64,000 nucleotides of DNA, from the IMG/VR virus record IMGVR_UViG_3300044732_000442, positions 1-64,000 of that record. One strand, 5' to 3'. Positions within the stretch are counted from its first letter, which is position 1; the number at the start of each line of letters is the position of its first letter. This DNA is from a virus. The notes below the pieces were generated by a model. That model saw only the letters and a list, made by a program, of their open reading frames with translations, was not told the DNA's origin and searched no databases. Below, piece by piece: positions 15,930 through 59,202 of this stretch. The translations under genes and the position numbers were made by a program.

Positions 15930-16811
15930 ATGAGAGCAATTGAATTTTTAACAGAAGCTAGAAACAGAATGTATCAATACATCAAAAGTATTGTTCCTAC
16001 CTGGCCTGAATATATTGTTAAAGATTGGCTCTATCAGGGATTTGGTCGTTATAATGATGAAAATCCTAAACGCAGATTATTGACTATGCTAAATCGTGAG
16101 GGTTTAAATAGAAACACTCAATGGCAATTTGTTCCTAACATGAAGTTTACTATGGATAATATGTGGACTACTCATACTTTAAGAAAACTCCAAGGTCGAG
16201 CCGGCGGACTTAGCGATATGGGAATGGACGTTCCCAGAGATTCTGAAAGACATGCTACACAAGCACAGTTAGCACAAAAACAAGGCGGTGTTAGAAGTGA
16301 ACCGGTGATACTAATTAAAAGACCTGACGGATACGAACTATTAGAAGGTTGGCATAGAACTATTCAGCACTTTCATAAATTTCCAGATGGTTACACGGGT
16401 CCTGCTTATGTTGCAGTTGCTCAAAGTAAGCAAGGTGTAGCGGAAGGCAATTTTGATTCCTTCAAATTTGGTAAGCCAATTACCTTTACTGCCTACCATT
16501 CTTCCGATTCAAAAATAAAAAGAATTCTCCCAACAGACGAATTTTATTTCAGTGATGATAGATACACATGGGAAGGAAACTATCTTTACAAAATAAAGAT
16601 AACTTTGAAAAATCCTTATGTCGTGCTAGATCAGAAAGCAGGGTACGAAGGTCATGCTACAGACTCTCTTCCAAAGATAAAGGCAGCTGGGTATGACGGG
16701 GTTATATATACCCCACATTCTGTTGATTATGGGTTTAGACAAGGCGTTTGTTTTTACCCACAAAAGCAAATATCTAACATCAAGTTAGTTAACTCTGATA
16801 GTGGTAAATAA
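15930..16811 (+). CDS. two-module protein: ParB/Srx-like domain + QGVAEG linker + ADP-ribosyltransferase-like domain
   Basis: MRAIEFLTE start; EPVILI...YELLEGWHR; then AYHSS...FYFS...LKNP...GYDGVI. Confidence 0.6.
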   Translation: MRAIEFLTEARNRMYQYIKSIVPTWPEYIVKDWLYQGFGRYNDENPKRRLLTMLNREGLNRNTQWQFVPNMKFTMDNMWTTHTLRKLQGRAGGLSDMGMDVPRDSERHATQAQLAQKQGGVRSEPVILIKRPDGYELLEGWHRTIQHFHKFPDGYTGPAYVAVAQSKQGVAEGNFDSFKFGKPITFTAYHSSDSKIKRILPTDEFYFSDDRYTWEGNYLYKIKITLKNPYVVLDQKAGYEGHATDSLPKIKAAGYDGVIYTPHSVDYGFRQGVCFYPQKQISNIKLVNSDSGK

Positions 16812-32003: not shown

Positions 32004-32627
32004 ATGGTAACAATAGAATTATTAACAGCAATGTGTCCAAAAACAAAACGCTCTATATTAGAGGGTTACGTTGAGCCACTAAACACAGTAGCAGAATACT
32101 ATGAGATGTTTGAAAACCCACGCAGAGTTGCCGGCTTCTTAGCACAGATAGCACATGAGAGTGGTGGTTTTAATGCTGTCATTGAAAACTTAAATTACAG
32201 TGCTAAAGGATTGATGGGTACGTTTAAAAAATATTTCCCCAATGAAGAACTAGCAAAGCAATATGAACGTAAACCAGAAATGATTGCTAATCGTGTTTAT
32301 GCTAATCGTATGAAGAACGGCGATGAGAACAGTGGTGATGGATTCAGATTCAGAGGTCGTGGATTGATTCAATTGACCGGGCGTGACAACTATACACGTT
32401 TTGCAGAAGCATTAGACATGAGTATTGAAGATACCGTAAGATATTTAGAAACACCAAATGGTGCTGTTGCAAGTGCTGGTTGGTTTTGGGATAACAATAA
32501 ATTAAATCAGTTCTGTGACCGCGATGATTTTGTAACACTAACAAAACGTATCAATGGTGGTACTATTGGGTTAGAAGATAGAAAACATCACTATCACTTA
32601 GCATTAGAAAATTTAGGCGCACATTAA
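32004..32627 (+). CDS. glycoside hydrolase family 19 endolysin
   Basis: FLAQIAHESGG, ENLNYS, FRGRGLIQLTGRDNY, TKRINGG..GLEDR. Confidence 0.92.
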   Translation: MVTIELLTAMCPKTKRSILEGYVEPLNTVAEYYEMFENPRRVAGFLAQIAHESGGFNAVIENLNYSAKGLMGTFKKYFPNEELAKQYERKPEMIANRVYANRMKNGDENSGDGFRFRGRGLIQLTGRDNYTRFAEALDMSIEDTVRYLETPNGAVASAGWFWDNNKLNQFCDRDDFVTLTKRINGGTIGLEDRKHHYHLALENLGAH

Positions 32628-43703: not shown

Positions 43704-45980
43704 GTGAATAATTCACCCGAAATTGAAGCCATTATTGAACAGGCTATAGAGTTGTCCAAACAACGTAAACATGAATATTGCACAATTGAACACTTACTAT
43801 TGTCTCTTATCACACATACTCCATTTAAAAAATGTTTAGATAGTTTTGGGTGTGATACTCAAACTATGGTAGTAGAGGTTACTTCATATATTGATAGTTT
43901 ACATGCTATCGTTGCAAAAGTAGATCCTGCTATTCAGGTGCAACCTAGAAAAACAAACAGTTTAGAACGGGTAATGAATCGTTCAGTAACTCAAGTACTC
44001 TTTACTGGGCGCAGGCAAGTAACTACTATTGATTTGTATTTAAGTATCGCAAGTGAAGGTAATAGTCATGCACATTACTTCTTACTAAAATACGGTATTC
44101 ATAAAAATGAATTTGTTGCACATTGGCAAAAAACTTATAAAGGTGCTGAATTTACTGCAAAACTTTCTGAAAGTCAAGCAGATGAAATCTTGGAAGAATA
44201 TACAACTAATCTAACTGATTTAGCACGTACAGGTAAATTAGAACCCTTGATTGGACGTAGCACAGAACTAGATGATATTGTTAACGTTCTTGCTAAAAGA
44301 TTCAAATCAAATGTATTGATGGTAGGTGATCCAGGTGTGGGTAAAACAGCAATTGCTGAAGGGCTTGCTACAATGATTGTAGATAAAACTGTACCTGAAT
44401 TCTTACACGGACATGAATTGTATTCACTTGAAGTGGGTGCATTACTTGCTGGAAGTAAATATCGTGGTGACTTTGAAGAAAAAGTCAAACAAGTATTAGA
44501 TGCATTGAACACTAAGAAAAATTCAGTATTGTTTATTGACGAAGCTCATACTATGAAGGGTAGTGGTTCATCTAGTAGTGGTTCAATTGATTTTGCTAAT
44601 ATGATTAAACCTGCAATCACTAAAGGTACATTGAAAGTTATTGCAAGTACTACTTGGGAAGAATACTACGAATCATTTGAAAAGGATCGTGCATTAATGC
44701 GTAGATTCTATCGTGTTTCTATTGACGAGCCCTCACATGATAGTACCATTCGTATCCTTAAAGGTCTAAGTACCCGATTGAATGATTTTCACAATGTTGA
44801 AATTAGTGAAGAAGCTGTTGTTGCAGCCGTAGATAGTTCAGCACGTTATATTCATGACCGAAAGAATCCAGACAAAAGTATTGACCTGTTAGATGCGGCT
44901 TGTGCAAAACAACGTGTTGCAGGTAATAAAGGTGCAATTATTACTAAAGACTTGATCCATGATCAGGTTGAACGATTCACTGGTGTCCCTGCTGATAAAC
45001 TTAATGGTGATAACTTTGACCGTATCAATAGCCTTGAAGTTAATATCAAAGGCAAACTATATGGACAAGATGAAACAGTTGAACAAGTGTTAGAACGTAT
45101 ATATGTTTCATTCGCTGGAATCGGTAATGAACATAAACCTACAGCAAGCTTTATCTTCTTAGGCCCAACTGGTACAGGTAAAACAGAATTGGCTAAGTTG
45201 TTAAGTAAAAATCTTGACATGCCATTACTCAAATATGATATGTCAGAGTATAGTGAGAAACACTCTGTATCAAGTTTGATTGGTCCTCCACCTGGCTATG
45301 TTGGGTTCGGTGATAGTCAAGTAGGTGGCGGACGATTAATTAATGATTTGAGCAAGAACCCACATAGTATATTGTTGTTTGATGAAGTTGAAAAAGCTCA
45401 TCCGGATATCTTTAATATCTTTTTACAAATGTTAGATGAAGGTCATATCACTGGAAGTAACGGTAAAGAAGTTAACTGCAAGAATACTATCATTATTATG
45501 ACTAGTAATTTGGGTAGTAGTGATAGTGAGAAGAACAATATTGGATTCGGTAGCCAAGAAAAGACAGGTGAAGATGATAAAGCAATTAAAGAGTTTTTCA
45601 AACCTGAATTCAGAAATCGTATTGATTTGATTTGTAAGTTTGGTAAACTTAATACTCTTGCTATTAAGAAGATTGTGGTTAAGTTTACAGAAGAATTAAA
45701 GAAAGCTTTACTAGAAAAACATAATATTAGTTTGAATTTAAGTGAGCCAGTAGTTGATTACTTGGCTGATAAAGGATATGATAAGAATATGGGTGCTCGT
45801 CCATTAAGTCGTAAGATTGATGAATTGATTCGTGTACCACTAAGTAAGAAAGTATTGTTTGAACGTATTAAAAATGCTAGTGTAACTTGTGTTTTAGTAG
45901 ATGAAAAAATTGAATTTACTGTTGTTCAAAAATCAATAGCGAAAGTAGGAGAAGATGGGATCATTGAAATTAGCAACTGA
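43704..45980 (+). CDS. clpA: ATP-dependent Clp protease ATPase subunit ClpA
   Basis: Clp N domain, two AAA modules (GDPGVGKT, GPTGTGKT), IGF loop, GARPL, no ClpB middle domain; GTG start. Confidence 0.92.
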   Translation: MNNSPEIEAIIEQAIELSKQRKHEYCTIEHLLLSLITHTPFKKCLDSFGCDTQTMVVEVTSYIDSLHAIVAKVDPAIQVQPRKTNSLERVMNRSVTQVLFTGRRQVTTIDLYLSIASEGNSHAHYFLLKYGIHKNEFVAHWQKTYKGAEFTAKLSESQADEILEEYTTNLTDLARTGKLEPLIGRSTELDDIVNVLAKRFKSNVLMVGDPGVGKTAIAEGLATMIVDKTVPEFLHGHELYSLEVGALLAGSKYRGDFEEKVKQVLDALNTKKNSVLFIDEAHTMKGSGSSSSGSIDFANMIKPAITKGTLKVIASTTWEEYYESFEKDRALMRRFYRVSIDEPSHDSTIRILKGLSTRLNDFHNVEISEEAVVAAVDSSARYIHDRKNPDKSIDLLDAACAKQRVAGNKGAIITKDLIHDQVERFTGVPADKLNGDNFDRINSLEVNIKGKLYGQDETVEQVLERIYVSFAGIGNEHKPTASFIFLGPTGTGKTELAKLLSKNLDMPLLKYDMSEYSEKHSVSSLIGPPPGYVGFGDSQVGGGRLINDLSKNPHSILLFDEVEKAHPDIFNIFLQMLDEGHITGSNGKEVNCKNTIIIMTSNLGSSDSEKNNIGFGSQEKTGEDDKAIKEFFKPEFRNRIDLICKFGKLNTLAIKKIVVKFTEELKKALLEKHNISLNLSEPVVDYLADKGYDKNMGARPLSRKIDELIRVPLSKKVLFERIKNASVTCVLVDEKIEFTVVQKSIAKVGEDGIIEISN

Positions 45981-49799: not shown

Positions 49800-50732
49800 A
49801 TGCAACTTGACAATGTAACTATTAGTGGTGGATTTGCTTATACAGTAGGAGCTCCCACTCAAGCAACAGCAGGATGGTATGGTGGAGGTAGAGCACCATC
49901 ATCTGTATCTACCGTGCAAAGAATAACTTTTGCAACTGACACCTCAACAGCAAGTGTACGTGGTCCATTAAGCTTCATCGTATCTCAATTTGCCGCGGCC
50001 GGCAATACAACTAACGGATGGTTTGGCGGAGGTTATACAGAGCCTGGACAAACATCTACAGTTCAACGAATAACATACGCAACAGATACAGCAACAGCGA
50101 CAGCACGTGGTCCTTTAAGTTTAACACTAAGTGGTTTAGTAGCCACCGGTAATACAACTGACGGTTGGTTTGGCGGAGCCTTTTCCATATCAACCGTAAA
50201 TAGGATCACTTATTCAACAGATACAGCAACTGCATCGGTTCGAGGTCCATTTAGCGCAAGTAAACTATTTTCGGCAGCAGCCGGTAATACAACTGACGGA
50301 TGGTTTTTTGGAGGCAGAGGATCTGAGTCGGTAGTAAATCGTATAACATATGCAACAGATACAAATACTGCAAGTGTACGTGGTCCGGTAAGTTTTGGTG
50401 TTGAGGCAGCAGCCGGTACCGGCAACACCACCGACGGATGGTTTGGAGGTGGTTATTCACCGGGCAATGGGAGGATTAGTACTATACAACGAATAACATA
50501 CTCAACAGATACAGCAACAGCAAGTGTTCGTGGTCCTTTAAGTGTAGCCGGGAGTTCCTGGTCTGCATCTAGTGACACCACATATGGATGGTTTGGTGGA
50601 GGTTATGTCGTTCCTAATATAATATCTACAATTCAACGAATAACTTTTGCAACAGATACTGTAACAGCGACAGCACGTGGACCGTTAAGTCTAGCAAGCC
50701 GACAGTTGGCCAGTGCATCCGGTATACAATAA
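49800..50732 (+). CDS. kelch-like beta-propeller repeat protein, family B (6 repeats)
   Basis: Six RIT(Y/F)xTDT/RGP repeats, ends ASASGIQ; late box at 49770. Confidence 0.75.
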   Translation: MQLDNVTISGGFAYTVGAPTQATAGWYGGGRAPSSVSTVQRITFATDTSTASVRGPLSFIVSQFAAAGNTTNGWFGGGYTEPGQTSTVQRITYATDTATATARGPLSLTLSGLVATGNTTDGWFGGAFSISTVNRITYSTDTATASVRGPFSASKLFSAAAGNTTDGWFFGGRGSESVVNRITYATDTNTASVRGPVSFGVEAAAGTGNTTDGWFGGGYSPGNGRISTIQRITYSTDTATASVRGPLSVAGSSWSASSDTTYGWFGGGYVVPNIISTIQRITFATDTVTATARGPLSLASRQLASASGIQ

Positions 50733-52939: not shown

Positions 52940-55741
52940 ATGAGCAATATTCTTAAAGGTATAATAAACGAAACTAGTCCGCATAATTACGATAGTGATT
53001 GGGATTATCAGGATGCTTTAGCACGTAGTGGCAAATCACGTTCTAGCTATCGTTCACAAGAAGATGATACGTCTGATGCTGATATTGCATATTCTAAAAA
53101 GATGTATCAATTGGGTCAACAACAGAAGGCTGCTAAAGAGAAAGCTCAACGTGATAATGACCATGATAGATTAGCAACTGGTACAAATGAAGATGATAGT
53201 AATCAAACTAGAATGAGAATGAATGATTATTACGATTTAGCTGAGGCTCTTCAGGAAAAGCTTAGACAAGCAATTAAGATGGGTAATAACGAACTTGTAC
53301 ATAAATTATCCAAAGAACGTGCTGAATTAGATGCACGTGTTAAAAAATATGGATTAATGCCTGAATCAGAACAATTAGATGAAATCTCTAATGAGAAATT
53401 GGCACAATACAAAACAGCTGCCGCCGCCGACGCAGGCAAAGCTGATAAAGAGGGAGACTTTAAGCGTGGTGATAAACGTTTCAGTGGTATTGTTAAAGCA
53501 ACTAAGAAACAATTTGCAAATGATACAAAGAAATCTGGTATAGGTCAAGGTATTTCAGAAGATAGATTTAACAGTAAACAAGAAGTTATTAACCATTTTG
53601 TTAAAAATGGTAAAAGTGCGGCAGCAGGTGCGGCAGCATGGGAACGTGGTTATAGAGGTTCAAATCCTAACAAACCAATAGAAATAAAAAAGCCACCTCA
53701 AAGAAGTTACCATGATGATTTAGATGATAAACGTTATTCTAATACGTTTGAAAATTTAGGTGATCAACTAAAATCACAATCTCTAGAAGCATTACAACAA
53801 ATCAAACAACAAATTGAACAAAAACGTGCCGACGAATTAGCTCAATGGGAACAAGATTTTAGAAATAATGTTGCTGGCAAAATGAGAAGCCAACCAATAC
53901 GTTCACCGGAAGCAACACCGGTTGCACAACCTGGTGAGAAGCATTCAGTATTAAAAGCTAGATTAGCACAACTCAATAATGCTATACAAAAACAAGAACT
54001 ATTGGACAAGTTAATTGATAAAATTGACCGTAAAGGTTTGTTGACTCCAGCAATGCAGAACGATGCTGATACTAGAATGCATGTTAAGTATGGTGCAAAA
54101 GATAACTATCAATCATTGAATAAAAAGTTAGACAATTCTATTTCAATGTTACAGGATAGATTGTATATACGTAAAAAATCAGGTTTAAAAGAATCGCCTA
54201 AGAGAATTGATTATGATAGTGATACATATGATAATACTAGAATGGGTAGAGAGTATGGCAAGGCTAATCTATTTGTAGATCCGGGGTCAAATGAATTTAA
54301 AAAAGAAATACATCCTGGAGATCCTGAAGGTGAACGTGGTAGACCAAGAAATCTAAAAGGTATTTCAAAAAGGTTACCTGCTGATGCGTTTGGTCGTACT
54401 AGCGGAGTTGTTCCTGATAGTGCAAGACCTAAATCAAAAGAAGATCCTTTTAAAGGAGTAGATGAAGCTGATATGAACCGTAGAGGGTTTTTAGGACAAG
54501 CAGGCAAGGCTGCAGGTGCTGGCGCATTGGCTGCCGCAGGCTTAGGTGGTGCTAGCAATGCTCAAGCATTTAAGGGAACACTTCCTGCTCCTCGTATATC
54601 TGAAGATGAGGCTGAAGCTCAAATTAAAGAATTAAGAAGTAAAGCATATAAAGAGTTAGCAAGTATGATGTGGAATGTATGGCCTAAAATACTAGACACA
54701 ACATTTGGCGCAAATACTCCTCAAGATAAGCCAGCTACACCCGATGAAATTGGTAAAATGTTAGGCTACAGATTAGCTGAATATGCTGATGACTATAGAC
54801 AAAAAGTTAGAGCAATTAAAATAGCAGCCGGAGTAAGAGATCCTCAAAGTTTAAATAAAACAACTGCCGCAATTTATGTTAATGAACAAGAGATGGATGA
54901 GGGTTGGAGTCAAAAGTACAAGAGTAGTATCAACTGTAGTCATCCTAAAGGTTTTAGTCAAAAAGCTCATTGTGCAGGCAAGAAGAAACACAATGAAAGT
55001 ATTGACAATGTTATGGAAATGACATGTCCTGATTGTGGTATGTGTGAAACTCACGTAGACCATGCTAAGTTAGATGAAGCTTGTTGGAAAGGTTATCACA
55101 AAGAAGGTAACAAAAAAATGTTTGGCAAAACATATCCTAACTGTGTAAAGAATACTAACGAAGAACAACTAGATGAAAAATGCTGGGACACACATAAACA
55201 AGTTGGAATGAAAAACAAAGGTGGACGTATGGTCCCTAACTGTGTGCCTAAAGAAAGTGTAGAAGAACAACATTCACATAGTGAAAGTTGTCCGCATTGT
55301 GGTGGCGAGATGGTTAGTGAAGAACTAATGAATGAAAAGAAAGATGCTTGCTACTACAAAGTAAAGAGCCGTTATAAAGTATGGCCAAGTGCTTATGCAT
55401 CTGGTGCGTTAGTTAAGTGCCGCAATAAAGGCGCAAGTAACTGGGGTACAGGCGGAAAGAAAAATGAAAGCTCTATACTAGAAGGTATTGAACAAGCAGA
55501 CGAAAGTTTACATGATTGGTTCAATAAAGAAAAATGGGTTCGCATGGATACTAAAGGAAAGATTAAAGGTCCGTGTGCAAGAGAACCAGGCGAAGGTAAA
55601 CCAAAATGTTTGCCACAAAGTAAAGCACATAGTCTAGGTAAAAAGGGTCGTGCTAGTGCCGCTCAACGTAAGCGTAGAGAAGATCCTAATCCAGAACGTA
55701 GTGGCAAAGCCATTAATGTTGATACAAAAAAGAAAGATTAA
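52940..55741 (+). CDS. large modular putative head-cargo polyprotein with internal Tat-like signal and Cys-rich mini-modules
   Basis: Start MSNILKGIINE; more than ten LDE/VDE/LKE/MDE-type junctions; MNRRGFL at 54473. Confidence 0.65.
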   Translation: MSNILKGIINETSPHNYDSDWDYQDALARSGKSRSSYRSQEDDTSDADIAYSKKMYQLGQQQKAAKEKAQRDNDHDRLATGTNEDDSNQTRMRMNDYYDLAEALQEKLRQAIKMGNNELVHKLSKERAELDARVKKYGLMPESEQLDEISNEKLAQYKTAAAADAGKADKEGDFKRGDKRFSGIVKATKKQFANDTKKSGIGQGISEDRFNSKQEVINHFVKNGKSAAAGAAAWERGYRGSNPNKPIEIKKPPQRSYHDDLDDKRYSNTFENLGDQLKSQSLEALQQIKQQIEQKRADELAQWEQDFRNNVAGKMRSQPIRSPEATPVAQPGEKHSVLKARLAQLNNAIQKQELLDKLIDKIDRKGLLTPAMQNDADTRMHVKYGAKDNYQSLNKKLDNSISMLQDRLYIRKKSGLKESPKRIDYDSDTYDNTRMGREYGKANLFVDPGSNEFKKEIHPGDPEGERGRPRNLKGISKRLPADAFGRTSGVVPDSARPKSKEDPFKGVDEADMNRRGFLGQAGKAAGAGALAAAGLGGASNAQAFKGTLPAPRISEDEAEAQIKELRSKAYKELASMMWNVWPKILDTTFGANTPQDKPATPDEIGKMLGYRLAEYADDYRQKVRAIKIAAGVRDPQSLNKTTAAIYVNEQEMDEGWSQKYKSSINCSHPKGFSQKAHCAGKKKHNESIDNVMEMTCPDCGMCETHVDHAKLDEACWKGYHKEGNKKMFGKTYPNCVKNTNEEQLDEKCWDTHKQVGMKNKGGRMVPNCVPKESVEEQHSHSESCPHCGGEMVSEELMNEKKDACYYKVKSRYKVWPSAYASGALVKCRNKGASNWGTGGKKNESSILEGIEQADESLHDWFNKEKWVRMDTKGKIKGPCAREPGEGKPKCLPQSKAHSLGKKGRASAAQRKRREDPNPERSGKAINVDTKKKD

Positions 55742-55750
55742 AGAGTAATT

Positions 55751-56191
55751 ATGTTGTCAGACAATCTAAAAGTATTACTAGCAAGCACACAAAGTTTTGC
55801 TATCAAAACACAAAACTTTCATTGGAACGTAGAGGGAAGTAACTTTCCACAATATCACGAATTCTTTAATACATTGTACGAAGATGTAAGTGCTACGATT
55901 GATCCTATTGCTGAATATATAAGAATACTAGGTCACTATACTCCTGGCAGTCTAACACGTTATGCTGAACTAAGTATCATACAAGACCAAATAAAGATTC
56001 CACGTGCTGAATTAATGTTTGTTGAATCATTACAAGATTGTGAAACAATGCTTCAGTTAGTAACAGCAATGTTTGATGAGGCAGCTGGTGAGAATCAACA
56101 TGGTATTGAAAACTATATGGCTGAACTACAAGACTTGTATGGTAAGAAAGCATGGTTCATTCGTTCTATATTAAAAAGAGAACGTGAATGA
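55751..56191 (+). CDS. dps: Dps ferritin-like DNA protection protein
   Basis: FHWNVEGSNF..YHEFF..LYE......D.IAE.IR. Confidence 0.92.
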   Translation: MLSDNLKVLLASTQSFAIKTQNFHWNVEGSNFPQYHEFFNTLYEDVSATIDPIAEYIRILGHYTPGSLTRYAELSIIQDQIKIPRAELMFVESLQDCETMLQLVTAMFDEAAGENQHGIENYMAELQDLYGKKAWFIRSILKRERE

Positions 56192-57066
56192 GAGCAACAG
56201 AGTTTATTACCGAACAAGCAAATCCTAAAGTAGATTTGACTCCAAATTATCCTAACTATCAAGTGTTAGTGGGTGAGTTTGTCGGTATGAAAAAAAACAG
56301 AGCAAGATTTTTAATTGTAGCCTCTGAACTTAAACCAGGTGTGCGAGAGACTGATAAAATTTTTAGAGCTAGAACTACTAATACACCTATCAGTATTGAG
56401 ATTGGTAGGGTAAAAAATCGTAATGTAGTAGATGAAGATTTATCACGTAGAGGCTTCTTAGGTGGTTTAGCTGGTATGGCTGCACTAGGTACTAGAGATA
56501 CAAAACCTACTGTTAATAAAGATACACCAACGGCACCACAAAAAGAACCTACTGTAACTACATTGAGTAACAATCCTCAAATTGAGAGTTTATTACATAA
56601 AGCCGCTGTAGCTGCCGGTATAGTTGGTATTGAATTAGCACAGTTTATGGCTCAAACTAAACATGAATCCTGGAATTTTAGTAGACTAAAAGAAAAGGGT
56701 GTAGGTCAAGGCTATTTTGCTAAAAAGTATGACCGTCAATATGCACCACGTACTGCTAAGATATTGGGTAATAAGCAGATAGGTGATGGAGAAAAATATC
56801 ATGGTCGTGGATTTATTCAATTGACCGGTCGTGATAACTATCGTATGGCTAGTCAAAGTTTAGGTATTGATTTATTAAATGATCCTGATTTAGCAGAACG
56901 ACCAGATGTTGCAGCCAAGATTGCTATATGGTATTGGAAGACACGTGTTAAACCCTATATAAATAACTTCAACGATACGAAGGCAGTAACACAAAAGATT
57001 AATCCAGCACTACGTGGATTACAAGATAGACATGCAAAGTTTATTGACTACAAAAACATATTATAA
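56188..57066 (+). CDS. GH19 muramidase/chitinase-like protein with N-terminal module and internal Tat-like signal
   Basis: MRATEFITE start; SRRGFL at 56443; FMAQTKHES, YHGRGFIQLTGRDNY, TQKINP...GLQDR. Confidence 0.85.
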   Translation: MRATEFITEQANPKVDLTPNYPNYQVLVGEFVGMKKNRARFLIVASELKPGVRETDKIFRARTTNTPISIEIGRVKNRNVVDEDLSRRGFLGGLAGMAALGTRDTKPTVNKDTPTAPQKEPTVTTLSNNPQIESLLHKAAVAAGIVGIELAQFMAQTKHESWNFSRLKEKGVGQGYFAKKYDRQYAPRTAKILGNKQIGDGEKYHGRGFIQLTGRDNYRMASQSLGIDLLNDPDLAERPDVAAKIAIWYWKTRVKPYINNFNDTKAVTQKINPALRGLQDRHAKFIDYKNIL

Positions 57067-57609: not shown

Positions 57610-58185
57610 ATGAGAGCAATAGAACTATACGAATCGGCCGCAAGTGAACTAGCTAAGAAACTTCCTAGCTTAGAGAAACACGACTATAATACCATTGATA
57701 AGCTAATGAAAAACATAGCAAAGAAACATCGTATAACCGGTGATGCATTGCATGATTTGTTTGTTAGAAAATATCATAAGACTCCAGACAGTTGGATTAA
57801 AGATAAACTAGATGAGAGTGAACAAGAAGATTTGAATAACAATCCTATTGTACAGAAGTTTCTTGCTTGGACAAGTAAGAAGTTGAATTTAGAAAATACT
57901 CCAAAGATAGAGTTTAGTTATGATAGTGATGAAGCACAAGAAGGTCATCATACTGGTAGACACAATCCAGAGACGGGTGAAGTATGGGTTTATTGTGCTA
58001 ATAGAAATCTAGTAGATATATTACGTACTGTGTTCCATGAATTAACTCATGTACGCCAGGGTGAATTAAATATGATTAAGCCGGGTGATAGTTATCCAGG
58101 TAGTCCAATAGAAGCAGAAGCGGATGTAATGGCTGGCAAATATATTAAAATATTTGGTAAAGCACATCCAGAAATATTTCAATAA
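57610..58185 (+). CDS. N-terminal module + zincin-like metallopeptidase domain
   Basis: Start reassigned to MRAIELYE; KLDE junction; HELTH (HExxH) and downstream PIEAEAD. Confidence 0.7.
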   Translation: MRAIELYESAASELAKKLPSLEKHDYNTIDKLMKNIAKKHRITGDALHDLFVRKYHKTPDSWIKDKLDESEQEDLNNNPIVQKFLAWTSKKLNLENTPKIEFSYDSDEAQEGHHTGRHNPETGEVWVYCANRNLVDILRTVFHELTHVRQGELNMIKPGDSYPGSPIEAEADVMAGKYIKIFGKAHPEIFQ

Positions 58186-58197
58186 AGAGAATAAAAT

Positions 58198-59202
58198 ATG
58201 TCAATATCAATAACAGGTGGAATATCATTTAGTGGTGGAGTAGGAATAACTGCCGCACCACCATCAACTCCAACAGCAGGATGGTTTGCAGGTGGGTCTG
58301 ACGATTCTGGTGTTACTTCAACAGTACAACGAATAACATATGCAACTGATACCGCTACTGCAAGTGTTCGTGGACCATTAAACGGCACCAGATATCAAAA
58401 TGCCGGTACCGGTAATTTAAATTATGGATGGTTTGCTGGTTCACGCATTACAGTTGCTATTAGCTCAGTATCAAGGATCACCTATGCAACAGATACTGAT
58501 ACAGCAAGTAATCGCGGCCCACTAAGTTATAGTGCTTATAGTATTACTGCGAACGGCACAGATACATATGGATGGTTTGCAGGTGGTAAGGATCAATCAC
58601 CTAGTGATTATTCTACAGTATCCAGAATAACATACGCAACTGATACTGGTACTGCAAGTACAAGGGGATCATTATCCGGTTGTTCATATCAAGGTGCAGC
58701 ATCTACTGACAGCACTACATATGGCTGGATTGCAGTAGGATTTGATAACCCTAGTACTATCGGATACCGTAGTATCGTAACTAGGATAACATATGCCACT
58801 GATACAGTAACATCAACTATTAGAGGTCCATTAAGTTCAACTAGATCATCAATGGCCGGTACTGGTAGTACAAGTTATGGTTGGTTTGCCGGTGGATTTT
58901 TCGTCGGCCCGCCGACATGGGAGGGAATTTATTATTCTAGGGTAGATCGTATTGATTATGCAAATGATACCGCTACAGCAAGTGTTCGTGGTCCGTTAAC
59001 TAGAACTAATCAAGGTCAAGCAGCATCAACCGATGGAACAACATATGGTTGGTTTGGTGGAGGAAATAATTTTTCAACTCCTGCCGGTCCTTTTTCTTCC
59101 GTAGACAGAATAACATATGCTACTGATACTGTTACTGCGACTGCACGTGGCCCGTTAAGTTCCGGTAGGAGGGTTTTTGCTGCCTCATCCGGTATACAAT
59201 AA
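58198..59202 (+). CDS. kelch-like beta-propeller repeat protein, family B (6 repeats)
   Basis: Six repeats; close paralog of 14099-15082. Confidence 0.75.
   Translation: MSISITGGISFSGGVGITAAPPSTPTAGWFAGGSDDSGVTSTVQRITYATDTATASVRGPLNGTRYQNAGTGNLNYGWFAGSRITVAISSVSRITYATDTDTASNRGPLSYSAYSITANGTDTYGWFAGGKDQSPSDYSTVSRITYATDTGTASTRGSLSGCSYQGAASTDSTTYGWIAVGFDNPSTIGYRSIVTRITYATDTVTSTIRGPLSSTRSSMAGTGSTSYGWFAGGFFVGPPTWEGIYYSRVDRIDYANDTATASVRGPLTRTNQGQAASTDGTTYGWFGGGNNFSTPAGPFSSVDRITYATDTVTATARGPLSSGRRVFAASSGIQ

Follow-up and report, generated by a model that had tools for sequence, protein, structure and literature searches.

A conserved Tat-type signal inside a multi-module polyprotein of a T4-related jumbo phage lies behind a putative prohead-protease site

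The stretch analysed here (the window) comprises the first 64,000 nucleotides of a 116-kb contig, IMG/VR virus record IMGVR_UViG_3300044732_000442. A gene of 933 amino acids (aa) in this window, hereafter the polyprotein gene, encodes a twin-arginine (Tat) export signal midway along its product. The signal stands behind an aliphatic-x-Glu motif (xxE), its sequence and its place are conserved among relatives, and a complete relative encodes a T4-type protease and capsid protein. We propose, with a probability of about one half, that the precursor is packaged into the phage head and cut at xxE, and that the cut would unmask the Tat signal on a helical passenger of ~105 aa. The polyprotein gene is organized as follows.

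52940..55741, + strand: multi-module polyprotein gene, 933 aa, a mosaic of unknown-function PHROG families
52940..52972, + strand: N-terminal 11-residue peptide ending in I-N-E, a candidate capsid-targeting peptide; conserved in L001, L005, and L008, similar in P0003
54194..54466, + strand: ~91-aa module ending in G-V-D-E; missing in the ortholog of the complete relative G001, inserted exactly at an xxE junction
54458..54466, + strand: V-D-E, putative prohead-protease site (cut after Glu); aliphatic-x-Glu in all 20 RR sequences
54467..54568, + strand: Tat-type signal (TIGR01409) with n-region A-D-M-N, RR-G-F-L-G, Gly/Ala h-region, and A-Q-A c-region
54569..54901, + strand: helical passenger module, ~105–110 aa, ending in V-N-E / M-D-E; 6 relatives; helical hairpin in AlphaFold2
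54902..55741, + strand: string of small basic Cys-containing modules, common to cyanomyovirus proteins (e.g. syn9 gp114, L049)

Results

A Tat-type signal in the middle of the polyprotein

The most likely start of the polyprotein gene is ATG 52940, which lies one base past the stop of the upstream gene. The ortholog in G001 (L001, 4123–7167) has the same start and begins with an identical 11-residue peptide, and the start given by the ORF finder (52904, 945-aa version) overlaps the upstream gene. A first-pass annotation, made from the sequence before our analysis, had described a polyprotein of ~930 aa, which becomes 933 aa once the start is set at 52940. The frame reads G-V-D-E (54455–54466), A-D-M-N (54467–54478, with ATG at 54473), and R-R-G-F-L-G (54479–54496), followed by a 16-residue uncharged Gly/Ala stretch, N-A-Q-A (54557–54568), and F-K-G. 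The RR is at residue 514 of 933, and the signal spans residues 510–543. The annotation had placed an RRxFL core, an Ala/Gly h-region, and an AQA peptidase site here in the correct frame and at the correct coordinates. The following module likewise ends as it had described, with V-N-E (ending at 54886) and M-D-E (ending at 54901).

Tat signals have the consensus S-R-R-x-F-L-K, a weakly hydrophobic Gly-rich h-region, and an AxA motif (reviewed in PMC7317946). The consensus is matched by N-R-R-G-F-L-G in the window and by S/T-R-R-G-F-L-G in relatives. When scored against TIGR01409 (TAT_signal_seq), the excised fragment reaches 17.4 bits, above the curated cut-off of 16.7; the relatives P0007 and P0006 reach 17.4 and 16.6 bits, respectively, and the whole 945-aa protein 9.1 bits only. 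In a six-frame scan of the 116-kb contig, the model matches at only two places, this site (19.6 bits) and a site in a neighbouring GH19 muramidase gene (16.0 bits). The mean Kyte-Doolittle hydropathy of the two RR h-regions is 1.2–1.3 (1.2 in the polyprotein), compared with 2.1–2.8 in the six N-terminal Sec/lipoprotein signals of this phage, which sit at the true N-terminus of other proteins. N-terminal location is usual for Tat signals too; in the polyprotein it would arise only after a cut at V-D-E.

The signal is conserved behind aliphatic-x-Glu in front of two unrelated passengers

An exhaustive search of 1.84 billion representatives returns six relatives of the helical module, all of them phage-like mosaics. 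Scans of IMG/VR add orthologs, together with L053 and L056, two more long precursors. For the neighbouring GH19 gene, 33 related loci are found.

56188..57066, + strand: GH19 muramidase gene with an N-terminus like the T4 capsid-targeting sequence (CTS), a ~75-aa module, V-D-E, and an RR signal at 56437–56493

The first-pass annotation had noted that V-D-E followed by RRGFL occurs in this gene as well. We find it at 56428–56463, where V-D-E precedes RRGFLG with identical GTAGATGAAG. The h-region of this copy is short, an AxA motif is not clear, and its TIGR01409 score lies just below the cut-off.

The relatives of the helical module, the IMG/VR orthologs, L053, L056, and the GH19 loci together provide 20 distinct RR sequences. 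RRGFLG, the loss of which the annotation would have counted against its interpretation, is invariant in 20/20, and an aliphatic-x-Glu is located 2–7 residues before the RR in 20/20. When the sequences are grouped by context type, P3 is V, I, or L in 16/16 and P1 is Glu in all. The sequences upstream of the signal belong to ~9 unrelated modules, and the chance of finding the motif is ~0.07 per context (f(VIL) = 0.204, f(E) = 0.057). Every relative that carries a signal retains it, down to 36% identity, always internally or behind a short N-terminal peptide, and most copies keep an AxA-type c-region. The n-region and RR core are more conserved than the passenger (~81% versus 51% overall identity in P0006; ~57% versus 36% in P0007).

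The signal heads two unrelated passengers, the helical module and GH19, and each passenger family shows two architectures. In the minimal form, a short N-terminal peptide ending in xxE is followed by the signal (P0007; GH19 in L016, L019, L020, and L032). In the embedded form, the signal is 87–677 residues deep (window, L001, P0003, P0006, L053, L056, L018, and L014). Module boundaries fall on the same motif. In the G001 ortholog, G-L-K-E runs straight into A-D-M-N-RR, and the window has its 91-aa module exactly between the two. On the other side of the passenger, breaks in homology to relatives coincide with V-N-E and M-D-E. In addition, BLAST breakpoints among relatives sit on xxE, and linkers of the type Q-G-V-A-E/G (the slash marking the junction) repeat in L053 and L056.

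AlphaFold2 predicts the passenger, from an alignment of eight sequences, to be a helical hairpin (pLDDT 60). The passenger has no match in Pfam, and its matches in PHROGs are unknown-function families only. A Foldseek search of the PDB gives no hit at E ≤ 0.001, and the ESM Atlas gives nothing usable. The roles in superinfection exclusion or envelope remodelling suggested by the annotation find no support; homology and structure searches gave the passenger no recognizable fold or family. Its more general interpretation, that a periplasm-bound passenger is released by cuts on both sides, fares better: the signal is conserved behind xxE before two unrelated passengers, the boundaries lie at xxE, and G001 encodes a gp21-type protease.

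T4-type head genes in a complete relative

The source contig has a CheckV completeness of 34%, corresponding to a full genome of ~340 kb. The window encodes a contractile tail, the sheath of which is closest to those of PA5oct, Atu_ph07, and Vibrio phage 2.275.O (39–47% identity), all jumbo T4-related phages. Judged by its genes, the source virus is a T4-related jumbo myovirus. The close relative G001 (348.7 kb, rated 100% complete) holds the ortholog of the polyprotein gene, with a module identity of 89%. G001 has a T4-type head module, which comprises a Peptidase_S77/gp21 protease (97 bits), an adjoining Glu-rich scaffold-like gene, and a Gp23 capsid protein (329 bits). Neither G001 nor the source phage encodes a TatA/B/E homolog.

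In T4, gp21 cleaves after L/I-x-E (PMC9026906), and the CTS is an N-terminal peptide of ~10 aa that is taken off by gp21 (PMC8442874, PMC9026906). Proteins that carry the CTS, internal proteins as well as foreign fusions, are taken into the prohead, and the cargo reaches the infected cell (PMC9026906, PMC8442874). The 11-residue peptide of the polyprotein ends in I-N-E and is conserved in orthologs, which agrees at the level of the motif with a T4-type peptide ending in L/I-x-E. Also at the level of the motif, the 9-residue N-terminal peptide of the GH19 gene closely resembles the T4 CTS. Given the gp21/CTS biology of T4 and the T4-CTS-like starts on this contig, a cut by the prohead protease is the simplest activation of an internal Tat signal, and in this lineage such a cut would be expected exactly at the position of the aliphatic-x-Glu.

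A second GH19 gene without a signal

The window contains a second GH19 gene, which adjoins tail-fibre-like genes on both sides and is conserved in G001.

32004..32627, + strand: second GH19 paralog, lacking both a signal and a CTS-like peptide; 32% identical to the GH19 domain of P0002 (56188–57066)

This paralog is likely either a tail-associated lysin or an endolysin of the ordinary kind. In G001, the counterpart of the CTS-type GH19 gene (L001 7617–8243) keeps the N-terminal peptide and inserted modules, ends in N-R-T-V-V-G, and stops where the window has V-V-D-E; the complete signal-plus-enzyme unit is missing. Because the signal-less paralog is common to G001, which lacks the RR-GH19 part, the enzyme with CTS and RR signal appears to be an accessory rather than the sole muralytic enzyme. 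Cultured-phage relatives of GH19 have the catalytic domain alone in common.

A proposed head-packaged precursor and unmasked signal

From this arrangement we infer a route that leads from packaging and cleavage through ejection into the cytoplasm to Tat export and action of the passenger. The short N-terminal peptide would take the 933-aa precursor into the prohead, where the gp21-type protease would split it into small modules by cleavage after aliphatic-x-Glu sites. Cleavage after V-D-E (54466) would create the new N-terminus A-D-M-N-RR and place a complete twin-arginine signal on the ~105-aa passenger, and a second cut, at V-N-E or M-D-E, would separate the passenger from the C-terminal modules. 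Like T4 internal proteins, the fragment would leave the head together with the DNA and enter the cytoplasm of the next host. Once refolded there, it would be recognized by TatBC and moved to the periplasm, with trimming after A-Q-A. The GH19 muramidase encoded nearby would follow the same relay.

A broader version of this proposal is a two-step relay run by T4-related jumbo phages. CTS-type peptides would load effectors into the head, the protease would strip the sequence before a cryptic signal (Tat in this phage, Sec-like in relatives), and after injection the host translocase would move the cargo, including a muramidase, to the periplasm ahead of phage gene expression. We put this broader version forward tentatively, at somewhat less than even odds.

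Several observations weigh against the proposed cleavage and export. The 34%-complete source contig has no gp21-type protease, scaffold-like gene, or Gp23 gene. In the minimal forms, the RR is 12–21 residues from the N-terminus, so the signal could work without cleavage. Val dominates at P3, whereas T4 prefers Leu/Ile. The polyprotein has 17 [VIL]xE sites versus 9–11 expected, an enrichment of only ~1.6–1.9-fold. One of these sites, I-S-E (54590–54598), lies between the signal and the helical core, but it is not conserved in P0006, P0007, or L056. P0005 has the helical module without any signal. Finally, the GH19 relatives L026–L039 have a Gly/Ala-rich hydrophobic segment without RR after [D/E]-E/G-W-K-[D/E], often with an AxA-like end and up to ~660 residues from the N-terminus (L030). 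This segment may be a Sec-like or SAR-like (signal-anchor-release) counterpart of the cryptic Tat signal, and selection seems to act on a membrane-active or export-competent N-terminus generally, with Tat-type and Sec-like versions.

Alternative explanations

The signal could be a membrane-insertion helix, by which the cut and ejected fragment anchors in the inner membrane without TatABC, as part of an ejection conduit or as a SAR-like tether. The segments without RR in L026–L039 fit such a helix, as does the GH19 copy of the window with its short h-region, unclear AxA, and 16.0 bits. There is also precedent for internal head proteins that have muralytic domains and work in the envelope, as with T7 gp16. 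However, a generic helix would not need an S/T/N-R-R-G-F-L-G that is invariant across 36–90% identity, and the AxA-type c-region of most copies and an HMM score that exceeds the Tat cut-off also speak for a Tat signal. We regard membrane insertion as unlikely. Alternatively, Tat could export freed fragments or minimal precursors within the producer cell at a late stage of the same infection, so that, for example, the attack on the wall is timed to head maturation. The distance of the RR from the N-terminus in minimal forms suits direct Tat targeting, and cleaved scaffold fragments exit the prohead in T4 (PMC9026906, PMC8442874). In T4, however, the cargo remains in the head and small peptides alone exit (PMC8442874). 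Embedded forms, with 87–677 residues upstream of the signal, need a protease, which in T4 acts inside proheads, and the signal-less GH19 paralog could serve as ordinary endolysin. Export in the producer cell appears doubtful at best.

The first-pass annotation had raised the possibility of an internal translation start at ATG 54473, which would yield an independent product whose Tat signal is N-terminal in the ordinary way. In the window, L001, L002, P0003, and P0006, N-RR has a Met immediately before it, and in the window AAGGAG is indeed present 14 nt before the ATG, at 54453–54458. But this hexamer is formed by the Lys-Gly-Val codons of the module specific to the window, L001, L002, and L008 lack it, and its 14-nt spacing exceeds that at the real starts of this phage. 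The Met is replaced by Gln in P0007 and by Pro-Ala in L053 and L056, and GH19 forms are all Met-less (Leu/Ile/Thr/Asp-type contexts). Moreover, no stop follows the module, so the product would keep all C-terminal modules. As neither the Met nor AAGGAG is conserved, an internal start is disfavoured and has a very low probability. The signal could also be a non-functional relic from fusion of a once-independent secreted module, or a chance low-complexity Ala/Gly run that mimics a signal. The genes are strongly mosaic, relatives are a handful, and the module of P0005 lacks the signal. Yet in internal copies at 36–55% identity no part of the region is better conserved than the RR core, which turns up again ahead of a second, unrelated passenger and in every case behind xxE, and TIGR01409 matches only twice in 116 kb. 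With this conservation pattern, we give a relic or a chance run the least credence.

Genes and motifs around the polyprotein

The C-terminal Cys modules of the polyprotein have homologs in cyanophages that are annotated as 'structural protein' in some records, the one indirect hint at a place in virions. At the nucleotide level, they show 75–80% identity over 110–300 nt with many Synechococcus and Prochlorococcus myoviruses, which suggests exchange of modules between phage groups. The identity to Synechococcus phages raised the idea of a cyanophage host, which we dropped: the complete relative has no psbA, and no tRNAs were found. A 115-aa antisense ORF (54211–54558) that overlaps the Ala/Gly codons of the signal is probably spurious.

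The GH19 gene shares a start of the type M-R-x-x-E-[FLI]-x-x-E with unrelated genes at 15930–16811 and 57610–58185 of the window and at 79029–79925 (− strand) of the contig. The protein encoded at 57610 has an H-E-x-x-H metalloprotease-like motif. A staphylococcal-nuclease homolog (PF00565; 57075–57512, + strand) has a classical N-terminal Sec signal ending in A-F-A/Q, and in G001 this locus is occupied by a different, endonuclease-like gene (L001 8254–9066), whose product has a Sec-type signal. Both products are predicted, from these signals, to be exported phage nucleases, and their genes adjoin the cargo genes.

Paralogous repeat proteins of phrog_19111, which the first-pass annotation had described as a propeller-like family, lie on both flanks of the polyprotein/GH19 block (49800–50732, 58198–59202, and neighbours). 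Shortly upstream of the block of cargo genes, at 43704–45980 (+ strand), is a gene for a 758-aa Clp/AAA+ 'ATP-dependent protease' family protein (phrog_4871, 781 bits).

On the whole 116-kb contig, TAAATA is located ≤40 nt upstream of 33/163 ORFs, with ~4 expected, and this enrichment suggests a T4-like late-promoter core. The motif is not present directly before the polyprotein gene. The T4 late promoter TATAAATA was rejected as a candidate, as it is not enriched in the window (5 seen, ~12 expected).

Discussion

Like bacterial Tat signals of TIGR01409, the signal of the polyprotein has an RR-x-F-L core, a weakly hydrophobic Gly/Ala-rich h-region, an AxA c-region, and a score above the cut-off. 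Bacterial signals are N-terminal, whereas this one occupies residues 510–543 of 933 and would be N-terminal only after proteolysis. Export of wall hydrolases by Tat is familiar from cells, as with AmiA and AmiC of E. coli.

The proposed route has much in common with that of the T4 internal proteins (IPI–III, Alt): the cargo is diverse, its short N-terminal peptide has aliphatic-x-Glu at the end, the lineage encodes a protease and a capsid protein of T4 type, and the cargo is predicted to be delivered into the infected cell. In contrast to T4 internal proteins, which are cut once and act in the cytoplasm, the precursors here are long and multi-module; they have numerous candidate sites and Val at P3, and the putative cut would expose an export signal.

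Tat substrates of the thylakoid lumen have a bipartite chloroplast transit peptide, the first part of which is removed by a processing protease that unmasks the Tat signal. The logic is analogous, in that removal of a first targeting peptide exposes a Tat signal for a second membrane step. The two systems are not homologous, one being import into a eukaryotic organelle and the other delivery from virus to cell.

Two further systems have a signal in a comparable place or role. Actinobacterial Rieske proteins are dual Sec-Tat polytopic proteins with a functional internal Tat signal after Sec-inserted transmembrane helices (PMC5449189, PMC3471235). They resemble the polyprotein in that the Tat signal is away from the N-terminus of the translation product, but their signal is not unmasked by cleavage. 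The upstream part of the polyprotein is soluble and highly charged. In SAR and signal-peptide endolysins, as in the GH19 neighbour, a muralytic domain follows a weakly hydrophobic Gly/Ala-rich segment. SAR domains, however, are N-terminal and Sec-dependent. The GH19 segment is 83 residues in (up to ~660 in relatives), its hydrophobic part begins at residue 89 of 292, and it has an RR core, so the GH19 enzyme does not fall among SAR endolysins. Moreover, the phage RR signal also heads a non-enzymatic helical module.

We found no report in the literature of Tat signals in phage head or ejection proteins. The arrangement combines two known kinds of element, a Tat signal and T4-type capsid targeting and processing; its architecture and conservation are real, and the mechanism is what we infer from them. 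If the two-step relay is correct, it would be the first instance in which virion-borne cargo is re-targeted across the inner membrane, and a prokaryotic-virus analogue of chloroplast bipartite transit peptides. Proteins injected by phages would then reach beyond the cytoplasm, with the virion seeding the periplasm of the new host with ready-made proteins via the host Tat system, and a new compartment would be added to early host takeover or exclusion. Such signals would be natural protease-gated signal peptides and would offer a design principle for the delivery of folded cargo to the periplasm by T4-type capsid-targeting vectors. The proposal would also explain export signals hundreds of residues inside phage ORFs, which standard annotation overlooks.

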